Below are positions 26,127 through 30,855 of a stretch of 64,000 nt of DNA, in pieces. The position numbers and the translations under genes are program-made. Location: assembly GCA_027317865.1 (NCBI GenBank), contig DAHVQG010000010.1, positions 32,001 to 96,000 on the forward strand, read 5' to 3'. The DNA comes from Bdellovibrionales bacterium (GTDB lineage: Bacteria > Bdellovibrionota > Bdellovibrionia > Bdellovibrionales > UBA1609). The notes beneath the pieces were generated by a model, which worked only from the letters and a program-made list of their open reading frames with translations, was not told the DNA's origin and did not search any database. The stretch's first letter is position 1. The number at the start of each line of letters is the position of its first letter.

Positions 26127-27813
<1,687 letters not shown>

Positions 27814-27830
27814 TTTTTAAAGATTAAAAT

Positions 27831-27855
27831 AAAAAACCCTCGGGATTACCGAGGG
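27831..27855 (-). terminator. Rho-independent terminator of the 26-aa basic peptide gene
   Basis: Stem CCCTCGG/CCGAGGG with a 5-nt loop, followed on the minus strand by U6. Confidence 0.8.
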
Positions 27856-27883
27856 CCATTTCGTTTCGAAAAAAGCGCGACCG

Positions 27884-27964
27884 CTATTTTCTTTTGCGTG
27901 TCGTTTTACGAGTTGTTTTTTTCGTAGCTTTTTTCTTTGTAGCTTTTTTCTTTTTTCTTGCCAT
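27884..27964 (-). CDS. 26-aa protamine/histone H1-tail-like basic peptide MARKKKKATKKKATKKTTRKTTRKRK (not in the ORF track)
   Basis: RBS GAGGGG 5 nt upstream of ATG, repeated KKAT/TTRK units, TAG stop, own promoter and terminator. Confidence 0.78.
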   Translation of the reverse strand: MARKKKKATKKKATKKTTRKTTRKRK

Positions 27965-27988
27965 GTGATCCCCTCACTTTCTTCTTTG

Positions 27989-28018
27989 ACTATAGAGTGT
28001 GTAGAAAAAATACGTCAA
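27989..28018 (-). promoter_or_regulatory. Sigma70-type promoter for the basic peptide gene
   Basis: TTGACG-N18-TATAGT with A/T-tract-rich upstream DNA. Confidence 0.65.
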
Positions 28019-28151
28019 ACGATTTTTTCATAAAAGTTTCGATTTTTATTTTTTGTCGCACAAAATTTCTTTTTATCGCGCATGTTTTTTGCATTTCTTT
28101 TTTTTCGAGACGAATTTCACGCGAAAAATTGTTCGCGCGACGGAGTTTTGA

Positions 28152-28907
28152 GTGCGACACGCGATTGTTTTTATCGAAATGTCGGCCGGAATGATCACTT
28201 TAGTCCGAATTTTTGCACAAATTCGGAAAAATTCGCTCGTGTCCAACGAAGCGATGACAAAAATTGTCGCTGCTTTTTTTGTCTGCGAGTGTTTGCTCGC
28301 GCTTGTGCCGGCGCGATCAATGATTGCATTCACTATCTGTTGGTCTGTACCGATCGCAGTTGCATCTTTTTTGCCAACGATCATTCGACGCCGTCGCCGT
28401 CAGCACTTTTTGCGACACCGGATTTGGATTTTAAACTGTCTGATTTTAAATACACGCTTAGGAATTGGGCTTCGCCGCGCTCTTGTGCAGACGAGTGACC
28501 GTGCCGATTTCTATATCAAAACTCGGCTCCGCCAACTTCACGATCGCTTGATCACAGAAACTAAAGGAAGTTCGAGTCATGCTCCAATGGACCCTGTTTT
28601 GCACGAATTGTACGAAACTCTTTGGCTTTGCGAGAGCGAAGCTCATCTCACGGTTCAAAGATTGGTGAATTATCGCCAGAAAATAGAAATTTATGAAGAA
28701 TTTCGCCGCAAATCGGATCAGGCTTTGCACCAACTTCGCGCTCAAGCTTATGTGCTAACCGGACTTTATGCGGGGCTTTTGTTGTTTGTTATATCGCGGT
28801 TCGGTTTTACCCAACACGAAAGAGCCATAATGCTGTCGGCAATGTTGTTTTTACTTGGTGTATTTATAACTCTAAGACAGGGGCGAAATATAAAATGGAG
28901 CGTTTAG
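28152..28907 (+). CDS. Divergent TadB-like (T2SS-F-like) membrane protein; start uncertain
   Basis: N-terminal TMs, G.GLRRAL, and FRRKSDQALHQLRAQAYVL before two C-terminal TMs, as in TadB. Confidence 0.55.
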   Translation: MRHAIVFIEMSAGMITLVRIFAQIRKNSLVSNEAMTKIVAAFFVCECLLALVPARSMIAFTICWSVPIAVASFLPTIIRRRRRQHFLRHRIWILNCLILNTRLGIGLRRALVQTSDRADFYIKTRLRQLHDRLITETKGSSSHAPMDPVLHELYETLWLCESEAHLTVQRLVNYRQKIEIYEEFRRKSDQALHQLRAQAYVLTGLYAGLLLFVISRFGFTQHERAIMLSAMLFLLGVFITLRQGRNIKWSV

Positions 28908-29329
28908 CCCCGCCGCTTGAATTGTGCATTTCGCTACGTCTTGGTATCGAAAGCGGTCAGTCGGTCATGCGAGTCATTAAAAAGTTTAAAATGCACGGCC
29001 GAGATGAAATGTCGTGTGATCTTGCGATGGTGCTTGCGGCCTTTGAGCGCGGCGAAACGGTAAAACTTCGTCCCGAAACCAATAATTTGCTCTACCGACG
29101 TGCGCTATTAGAATTAATCGAGGCGGGGCTAAGGGGCGAACCGATTTTAAATCAACTCAAAGAACTTGAGACCGAGATCCTAAAAGCCTGCCACTCGGAC
29201 ATCGATAAATACGTGGCGGCATTGCCGATGCGTACGATGATTCCGCTTATGTTGATACAATTTCCGGCTTTTTTGTTGTTACTGTTGGGTCCCATTGTAA
29301 GCGAACTCATTAGGGGGTTAAGTTCATGA
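28895..29329 (+). CDS. Short TadC-like protein
   Basis: IESGQS, G.PI...L and C-terminal LPMRTMIPLMLIQFPAFLLLLLGP resembling the TadC C-terminus. Confidence 0.6.
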   Translation: MERLAPPLELCISLRLGIESGQSVMRVIKKFKMHGRDEMSCDLAMVLAAFERGETVKLRPETNNLLYRRALLELIEAGLRGEPILNQLKELETEILKACHSDIDKYVAALPMRTMIPLMLIQFPAFLLLLLGPIVSELIRGLSS

Positions 29330-29766
29330 ATAAACTCGTTGCGGGGGTATTTGTAACTATCAGCATCGTTTCTCTTTCATCAAAGGTCAGATGTGAATCT
29401 CGACTCGACATTCATCGGCTTGAAATTCAGGCAATGACCACGGCACAAACTGTTGCGGAGTTAAGAGGCCGCCTTGCAACGATTAAAAAATTGGCCACCG
29501 AAGAGTTGGCGTGCCGGATGCAACTAAAATATAAAATGCTCCCATATAGCTGTTATCGGGCGCGCGCATTGCGAATTGTAAACAGATGGCCTTTAGATGG
29601 CCGGATTTACAGTAATTTAAACGATCGTTGCTTACAAATTGCGGGGCGCACAAACGAACTTGATCTTAAAAAAATCCGGGTATTGCCGTCAAAATGTCGC
29701 ACAGTTGCGCGCTCGCGCATTCAAATTAACCGCTACAAAGCCGGACGGAGTTGGCAAGGAATTTGA
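29326..29766 (+). CDS. Secreted, basic, Cys-containing hypothetical protein
   Basis: Signal-like N-terminus, several Cys, translationally coupled. Confidence 0.6.
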   Translation: MNKLVAGVFVTISIVSLSSKVRCESRLDIHRLEIQAMTTAQTVAELRGRLATIKKLATEELACRMQLKYKMLPYSCYRARALRIVNRWPLDGRIYSNLNDRCLQIAGRTNELDLKKIRVLPSKCRTVARSRIQINRYKAGRSWQGI

Positions 29767-29781
29767 TAGACTCCAGCGCTG

Positions 29782-30855
29782 ATGGAGTCCGTTCTGACTA
29801 AACCATATCAGTATCGCATTGTGGAGTGCCTTGGCGAGGGGCTAAACAGCTGTGTTTACCGGGCTTTTAAACAATCAAACGAACTCAATGTGAGATTTGA
29901 GGTCGCGCTTAAAATTCTTAAGTCCAAGAATTTGGAAGCACTTTGGAGAAATGAGTTTGAGCGGCTCATCTGCGTCAAGTCGCGGCACTGCGTGGCACTT
30001 CATGGTTGGGAGTTAATTAACAACTCTCCCGCACTTGTTCTCGAATATGTACGAGGGGTCAATTTGGCCGAACTTGTGAAGTATGTCGAACTAAACAAAG
30101 AAAATATCGACTGCATCTATGGACAAGCGCGCCGCGGCCTTAGAGATTTGGCACAGGTGGCACTTTTTCACGGCGATTTAAATCTCAACAATATCATGGT
30201 TGATGACACGGGCGTCGTGAAGCTTGTGGATTTCGGCGTCCGAAACGGGCACAAAGACTACCTTGTCACACCTAAATTTGCCGCTCCTTCAGTACTTATG
30301 GGCGAAGAACCAAATATCGAAACCGATATATTTAGCCTCGAGGCAATTTGTCTAGAGATCGAGCTTAATCACTCAAGCCATGTGCCCGACGACGGCAGTG
30401 TAGGAGGTCCAAAGCAAGTTGGTAATGCACCGGAGTTTGCGACCCATGATCTGGCCAAAAAGGTTCGGATCGCCATGAAAAGGCGCGAGAATGGGCGGGT
30501 ACGAACGAACGCATACAAGGCGCCGCGTTCGTTCCGGTTATCGCGGCAAACATTATTTCAAAGTATTGGAGTCGGATTTATATGCCTATTTTTTTCTATT
30601 TTGTCTCAGGGTGATTCCACCCGGCATTTGCCGACGCCGCCAGCTCGTCTCATCGTGCGAACAGTGAAATGGGTGAAAATCGCTGTGAACGGGCACGACT
30701 ATGGATATTCGCCGGTAAACATCTCACTATCAGCGACGCGCATGGTTCATTTGCAATGGTTCGGATCGGCGGGCCAAGGGGGGCGCACGATTGCGCTCAT
30801 CCCAGGGCAAACTAAATTCTTAACAGACAATTTTTTTAGTCCTGACTCAAAATAA
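29782..30855 (+). CDS. Membrane Ser/Thr protein kinase with C-terminal PEGA-like domain
   Basis: LGEG, VALK, HGDLNLNN and DFG; TM; VNG..YGYSP. Confidence 0.85.
   Translation: MESVLTKPYQYRIVECLGEGLNSCVYRAFKQSNELNVRFEVALKILKSKNLEALWRNEFERLICVKSRHCVALHGWELINNSPALVLEYVRGVNLAELVKYVELNKENIDCIYGQARRGLRDLAQVALFHGDLNLNNIMVDDTGVVKLVDFGVRNGHKDYLVTPKFAAPSVLMGEEPNIETDIFSLEAICLEIELNHSSHVPDDGSVGGPKQVGNAPEFATHDLAKKVRIAMKRRENGRVRTNAYKAPRSFRLSRQTLFQSIGVGFICLFFSILSQGDSTRHLPTPPARLIVRTVKWVKIAVNGHDYGYSPVNISLSATRMVHLQWFGSAGQGGRTIALIPGQTKFLTDNFFSPDSK

Follow-up and report, generated by a model that had tools for sequence, protein, structure and literature searches.

Hc2 (HctB) and Hc1 (HctA) condense the chromosome of the non-replicating developmental form in chlamydiae. 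In histone H1 tails and protamines, threonine and serine serve as phospho-switches. Among very small ribosomal proteins, bTHX, bS22 and bL37 are ~24–33 residues long, very basic and often missed by annotation. ScvA of Coxiella burnetii has an arginine- and glutamine-rich composition. Both ScvA and Hq1 are described, in the part of PMC4766238 available to us, as small basic DNA-binding proteins with enrichment in the SCV, the form of this bacterium that is condensed and does not replicate. The lysine-rich disordered C-terminal domain of AlgP localises to polyphosphate granules and spaces them, according to the available portion of PMC9239181.

The peptide described here, from the order Bdellovibrionales, is a minimal, stand-alone form of the bacterial H1-like polycation theme, with a function that we infer. 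Its family shares with Hc2 and Hc1 a lysine/alanine-rich, repetitive, disordered polycationic character and a variable repeat number. The chlamydial proteins are, however, five to ten times longer, whereas the micro-gene for our family keeps one syntenic position and belongs to another phylum. The closest precedent is ScvA, a peptide-sized DNA binder from a bacterium with a biphasic life cycle, although the likeness is one of description (from the accessible text of PMC4766238) and the phylum is unrelated. AlgP and PhaF of Pseudomonas also carry a lysine-rich, disordered, H1-like repeat of variable number, and the AlgP domain binds DNA-derived peptides and polyphosphate granules; unlike in our family, their KPAA repeat is proline-rich and joined to a folded N-terminal domain, and the role shown is granule spacing (PMC9239181, available portion). 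The H1 C-terminal tail and the protamines likewise combine lysine (or arginine) with Ala/Thr/Ser spacers, charge neutralisation and DNA bridging, but the peptide has neither a globular domain nor homology to H1, and protamines are arginine-rich. Closer to home, lysine-tailed SWIB and histone-fold proteins of Bdellovibrionota contain the same (KKKAT)n repeat starting with MAKKK, which in our case stands alone without a folded domain. In contrast to bTHX, bS22 and bL37, which have a fixed length and a clade-specific sequence, the family varies six-fold in length, and the 26-aa peptide matches no model.

The window, by which we mean the whole 64,000-nucleotide stretch analysed, contains a micro-ORF of 26 codons and a TAG stop (27886–27884) at 27884..27964 on the minus strand, identified by strand reading and in the ORF list. 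Its product, MARKKKKATKKKATKKTTRKTTRKRK, consists of 12 Lys, 4 Arg, 6 Thr, 3 Ala and 1 Met, with zero acidic or aromatic residues and a net charge of about +16. Read from the sequence, it has no signal peptide and no hydrophobic residues. A consensus search placed a −35 hexamer, TTGACG, at 28013..28018 (−) and a −10 hexamer, TATAGT, at 27989..27994 (−) with an 18-nt spacer; this TTGACG-N18-TATAGT arrangement (28018..27989) matches 10 of 12 consensus positions and gives a predicted transcription start near 27982. The Shine–Dalgarno sequence GAGGGG (27970..27975, −) was read 5 nt 5' of the ATG. Hairpin search and RNA folding located an intrinsic terminator at 27825..27857 (−), comprising a stem-loop (27857–27835; 9 pairs, 6 of them G-C, loop of 5) and then the T-run TTTTTATTTT (27834–27825). 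The predicted 159-nt transcript, with the terminator hairpin present, folded better than 200/200 shuffles (z = −3.96). An earlier sequence-only reading of this DNA had claimed a Lys/Arg- and Thr-rich ORF at 27964–27884 (−) without acidic or aromatic residues, together with this ribosome binding site, promoter and terminator; every one of these elements was found in place. In the 2 kb around the gene, promoter-like sites number 3 (2.7 expected) and terminator-like sites 5 (3.3 expected), so that neither single-window signal is above chance. The promoter and terminator of the window count for more than chance because they are conserved across orthologous loci.

The micro-gene is monocistronic, since its downstream neighbour is convergent and its upstream neighbour divergent. 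The divergent operon (28152–30855, +) comprises orf251 (28152–28907, +), orf144 (28895–29329, +), orf146 and a Hanks-type Ser/Thr kinase gene (Pkinase 9e-22). The first two, taken from the ORF list, form the syntenic anchor pair, and orf144 has a weak Pfam match to T2SSF (18.7 bits, below the cut-off). The kinase follows orf144 in 23/53 related loci and is not found there in the genus with complete 3.6–4 Mb genomes. The convergent neighbour is a 257-aa ORF (27040–27813, +) from the ORF list with no Pfam match. From its hydrophobic N-terminus and aromatic C-terminal end (…VYYF), its product looks like an outer-membrane β-barrel, and homologues occupy the same site in 31 of the 53 related loci. 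Because the 5' end of this ORF runs into the mdh ORF in its long reading, mdh probably starts near 27071.

A DNA search of 40 relatives returned two same-genus genomes at 90% identity, limited to the interval that begins at the −10 box and ends with the stop codon; the flanks had no match. Small K-rich ORFs were nevertheless seen in many related loci, always divergent from orf251/orf144 homologues, and orf144 served as the anchor for synteny. A profile of orf144 identified orthologues in 78/79 other genomes of the order and in the one genome (1/1) of the same class, and elsewhere in the phylum long T2SSF paralogues only. The anchored set comprises 79 loci (the window's genome, 77 other genomes of the order and one of the same class, with G035 left out), and a K-rich ORF was present at the same relative position and orientation in 79/79. 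A regular expression found 78 of these ORFs, the 79th (L163) being broken by an N run. Besides this one, two are cut by contig ends, leaving 76 complete ORFs, all of which run from ATG to stop and which represent 67 distinct nucleotide sequences. The family thus keeps both its frame and its one site beside orf144 in relatives, the two comparisons that the sequence-only reading had proposed for its peptide gene. Among the reduced genomes (1.2–1.6 Mb, same family), the ORF was found in all four that have orf144; a fifth had no orf144 match.

We also tried mdh as a syntenic anchor, which proved poorly linked. Of the loci anchored on mdh, 80 in all and drawn from named MAGs (Bdellovibrionales, Pseudobdellovibrionaceae, Bdellovibrio sp. 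and outgroups), 6 contain orf144, and the K-rich ORF was present in 6/6 of those. One further, contig-truncated mdh locus also carries the ORF, bringing the total to 7 of 80. The association is therefore with orf144 and not with mdh. A position directly 5' of mdh on the same strand was seen in some genomes, two of them from the window's genus. Direct detection by protein profile was insensitive, with 11 of 151 genomes of the order matched and 0 candidates in G007, a genome with a known member.

Expression signals accompany the ORF throughout the family. An SD-like motif was found 4–18 nt 5' of the start in 75/76 complete ORFs, TTGAC[GA] at ≤130 nt upstream in 68/76, and a hairpin (≤ −8 kcal/mol) with T-run at ≤110 nt downstream in 75/76, the sole miss lying at a contig end. 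The promoter TTGACGAAnAnAGTCACnnnGnTAAACT is common to many genera. Outside the window's genus (L114–L191), the 5' UTR is ~50 nt long and contains a conserved AACAACAA(C) motif and CATCCTAGGAGGA; the leader is shorter in the window's genus. In these same L114–L191 loci the promoter spacer carries a conserved AGTCAC. Candidate roles for the three motifs (AACAACAA, CATCCTAGGAGGA and AGTCAC) are enhancement of translation, an Hfq-type (ARN)n site and operator function.

Selection was tested on 9 phylogenetically independent close pairs of equal length, which differ at 103 nucleotides in total. In the lysine frame 75/103 differences are synonymous (73%), compared with 20% under random mutation (binomial p 1.3e-30), and the other five frames gave 7–53 synonymous differences. 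In the pair L166/L170, every one of the 13 differences within 75 nt is synonymous, and identity over the 40 nt upstream is as low as 30%. The highest count among the other frames (53 synonymous) belongs to a co-phased antisense frame. In the window this corresponds to an ORF in the ORF list at 27894–27968 (+) that encodes a hydrophobic F/V/A/L peptide, MRVVLRVVFFVAFFFVAFFFFLAM, and whose third codon positions coincide with those of the lysine frame. It is automatically open because lysine codons complement to Phe/Leu codons, and synonymous-site tests on poly-lysine genes can in general be misled by a co-phased open antisense frame of this kind. Discordant sites separated the two, with 23 synonymous in the sense frame only and 1 in the antisense frame only (p 3e-6). 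As judged from these substitutions, the lysine frame is the one under purifying selection.

These data bear on whether the ORF is incidental to a small RNA, to a leader or attenuator for mdh–sucCD, or to a type-I-toxin-like antisense partner of the 27894–27968 (+) frame. The RNA is purine-rich with ARN-type triplets, the position directly 5' of mdh recurs in the genomes noted above, and the plus-strand frame is open and co-phased. Against this stand the synonymous excess in the lysine frame and its 23-to-1 advantage over the antisense, the orientation of the SD, promoter and terminator T-run, which all face the lysine frame, and the placement of the terminator after the stop in 75/76 ORFs. The convergent gene separates the micro-gene from mdh in the window and in the 31 of 53 loci that have it. 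Rfam 15, searched at a permissive E-value, returned 15 matches, all with E ≥ 0.65, the best of them scoring 20.3 bits where 60 is the gathering threshold. We consider an incidental ORF improbable in the extreme. A leader peptide or attenuator was rejected as a candidate on the convergent next gene, the terminator in 75/76 and downstream neighbours that differ between lineages. On sequence grounds, 27825–28018 (−) is a real, complete, conserved, monocistronic micro-gene with the translation given above.

The gene is effectively unannotated. All 28 of 28 family sequences examined (21–121 aa) were absent from ~15 billion predicted proteins, and a 46-aa relative used as query yielded 1237 word-sharing candidates with no protein of 25–81 aa at E ≤ 0.01. 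One 43-aa member is present in the ESM Atlas as an exact match, and the clusters closest to it are unnamed 42–46-aa 'hypothetical proteins' from other phyla. No Pfam or NCBIfam family, ribosomal-protein models included, matched the 26-aa peptide at E ≤ 10, and neither Hc1/HctA nor the linker-histone H1/H5 globular domain appeared among Pfam matches at that threshold. For longer relatives HC2 (PF07382) was the sole Pfam family to appear, below its cut-off; a 124-aa relative scored 15.9 bits against the HC2 cut-off of 40 and 12.1 bits against the NF038052 cut-off of 135, which leaves it outside both. The family's motif strings had no occurrence in the literature searched, and searches on Bdellovibrio lysine-rich or small proteins, sORFs and Ribo-seq found nothing relevant. 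The sequence-only reading had called the gene a monocistronic unit below gene-caller size, a description that order-wide frame conservation and purifying selection and the absence from the 15-billion-protein collection bear out. A gene under clear purifying selection can stay unannotated in a well-studied lineage, and micro-genes for polycations may be overlooked repeatedly.

Family members are 21–124 aa long (21–121 aa for the 76 complete anchored ORFs), and this six-fold variation arises through the number of repeats, (K-K-K-A/T-T)n. They contain almost no proline and no folded domain. Lengths are 23–26 aa in the window's genus and 28–55 aa in the genus with many complete 3.6–4 Mb genomes, B. 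bacteriovorus has an orthologue of 36–55 aa at the syntenic site, and the MAKKK start and KKK end are retained across lengths. Because the repeat number is freely variable between lineages, a function by charge dosage is suggested rather than one by a fitted binding pocket.

Across the phylum, 300 genomes were searched for an SD with MAKKK behind it, and 30 loci from this search were read individually. In these the same repeat forms an N-terminal tail on SWIB proteins (PF02201 at 1e-29 for two tested) and a tail on histone folds of the DUF1931/HBb type (L205–L209, L226; PDB 9qt0 at 3e-8, 8cmp at 4e-5), and the loci further include long H1-like proteins and more stand-alone peptides. A similar lysine tail occurs on a fumarase-like enzyme (L197). 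Among 20 further pattern matches in other families, 11 are stand-alone peptides of 15–24 aa located between pyrD and a flagellin gene, without the orf251/orf144 operon. In the genome of the window there is also a SWIB protein (C3:14175–14497, −) with a 27-residue K/T/A-rich N-terminal tail, MAKKKTTKKTTAKK…, whose SWIB domain is 67% identical to that of a SWIB protein from another family. The 72 closest database proteins to a 97-aa member of the family, weak and compositional matches with E from 2e-6 to 1, comprised 35 with SWIB, 8 with topoisomerase C-terminal repeats, 7 with HC2 (5 of them also SWIB), one with IF2_N, one with DUF2934 and 25 with no domain. Common descent of these low-complexity repeats cannot be shown; all of these matches are compositional.

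The stand-alone members also inform the question of whether the peptide could be exported into prey or the medium as a polycationic effector that attacks membranes or DNA. The host organisms are predatory, polycations can be antimicrobial, and the conserved neighbouring operon encodes T2SSF-like membrane proteins. That operon is, however, divergent and not co-transcribed, the members between pyrD and the flagellin gene do without it, and the peptide has neither a signal peptide nor hydrophobic residues. Export is accordingly very improbable.

A lineage-specific small basic protein associated with the ribosome or RNA, filling an rRNA cavity or stabilising RNA as in bTHX, bS22 and bL37, deserves closer consideration. 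The peptide has the size and charge of the tiny ribosomal proteins, and its gene is monocistronic with a strong SD and a near-consensus σ70 promoter. It is also kept in genomes reduced to 1.2–1.6 Mb, and one look-alike tail is carried by an IF2 N-terminal domain. Yet no Pfam or NCBIfam ribosomal family was matched at E ≤ 10, and a spread of 21–124 aa within one order sets the family apart from proteins that fit one constant pocket in rRNA. The look-alike tails sit mainly on DNA-linked domains (35 SWIB and 8 topoisomerase) as opposed to one translation-linked protein among the 72. We regard a ribosomal or RNA-binding role as unlikely.

The peptide might instead be a general counter-ion for polyanions, either organising polyphosphate granules like the AlgP C-terminus or acting as a target-free 'proteinaceous polyamine'. 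The physical chemistry is the same, and the repeat number is variable as in AlgP (PMC9239181, available portion). The locus and its neighbours have no link to ppk, ppx or granules, and AlgP tails consist of proline-rich KPAA repeats on a folded domain, whereas the family is almost proline-free and domain-free. This makes a general counter-ion role distinctly improbable.

The reading we favour, with about even confidence, is that the 26-aa peptide may be an abundant nucleoid-associated polycation, like an H1 tail or Hc2. The sequence-only reading had proposed a minimal nucleoid-condensing or RNA/ribosome-binding peptide; DNA or chromatin is favoured as the target by the composition and by the domains that bear look-alike tails. 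The peptide would be made in large amounts and have no fold, and would bind the phosphate backbone of nucleic acid through bulk electrostatics. Its likeliest target would be the chromosome. There, much as a protamine, chlamydial Hc2 or the C-terminal tail of H1 does, it would bridge DNA itself, or DNA with a coat of the tail-less bacterial histone, and neutralise its charge.

The sequence-only reading had further connected the peptide with nucleoid compaction in attack-phase Bdellovibrio cells, a link that the promoter does not uphold. The available text of PMC3627812 reports the TTAAG-N16-CCGATA promoter type for 92/140 attack-phase promoters of B. bacteriovorus and, in addition, eight attack-phase sRNAs. 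The promoter of the micro-gene is σ70-like and lacks this FliA-type motif, and since it is not of the attack-phase type, a role specific to attack-phase compaction is not indicated. A σ70-like promoter would fit the late-growth peak reported for bd0055. Bd0055 is given as the most abundant nucleoid protein in the portion of PMC10627809 available, which with that of PMC10634947 (both on Bdellovibrionota chromatin) contains no mention of a protein such as ours; the peptide is also missing from the list of nucleoid-associated proteins in a 2025 preprint. The nucleoid proteomics of Bdellovibrio used LysC/trypsin digestion (PMC10627809, same portion), which would cut the peptide to very short fragments.

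Beyond a nucleoid polycation in general, a free-standing 'histone tail' acting in trans, or bacterial protamine, can be proposed, and we offer it as a speculative, rather doubtful extension. Here the peptide would be synthesised in large quantity as growth ends and would bridge DNA that carries a coat of tail-less HBb of the Bd0055 type, whose filament exposes an acidic surface. The outcome would be the extreme compaction of the non-replicating Bdellovibrio nucleoid that known nucleoid-associated proteins, transcription and translation leave unexplained. The threonines could form a phospho-switch for decompaction, operated by the Hanks-type kinase present in the neighbouring operon of about half of the lineages; it is conceivable that a Thr-rich peptide is a substrate of such a kinase. 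For the exceptionally compact nucleoid of non-replicating Bdellovibrio cells, the peptide offers a concrete testable candidate, conserved in every genome of the order examined with the orf144 anchor (the genus with many complete 3.6–4 Mb genomes among them), equipped with strong expression signals and missed by gene callers.

A match to the Bd0055/HBb-type histone was found in 278/301 sampled genomes of the phylum, and the window's genome encodes a tail-less 64-aa histone fold of this type (C9:39607–39798, −) along with three HU/IHF genes. Histones of the order that were read were tail-less in 30/30 cases and 62–68 aa long. Lysine-tailed histones were seen in only two genera (g163, and g201 with a short tail). 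Apparently 'long' histone frames in other families were considered as lysine-tailed forms and rejected, being zinc-ribbon fusions, upstream non-coding frame or spurious. The argument for a 'detached histone tail' is thin on account of these two observations. The fusions themselves (L262, L268, L271, L275, L279 and L281) join a histone fold to an N-terminal Cys-rich (CxxC…CxxxxC…CWDxH) zinc-ribbon-like domain and occur in several families, including one genome of the window's own family. Another family (L294–L299) contains ~100-aa proteins whose N-terminal half is rich in K/A/P; a hydrophobic stretch rich in Gly/Ala follows, and the end is acidic, …(G)EDEE/EE.

Some minor observations concern the lysine codons and read coverage of the window. 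At 27946–27955 (−), the codons AGA AAA AAG contain the heptamer A-AAA-AAG in frame, which we take to be of the classic −1 slippery sequence type, as in dnaX; most relatives alternate AAG and AAA. A search for RNA runs that cover the locus returned none. In four metagenome runs, covered as contigs only and at low depth, there were 0 variants in 27825–28018, five at 28031–28119 and one at 27657, with foreign low-complexity contigs stacked over 27903–27964. Over this last interval, runs X3 and X4 showed very deep piles of 31–59-nt low-complexity contigs representing DNA of other organisms, and lysine-codon repeats appear to be abundant in these mine-drainage metagenomes.
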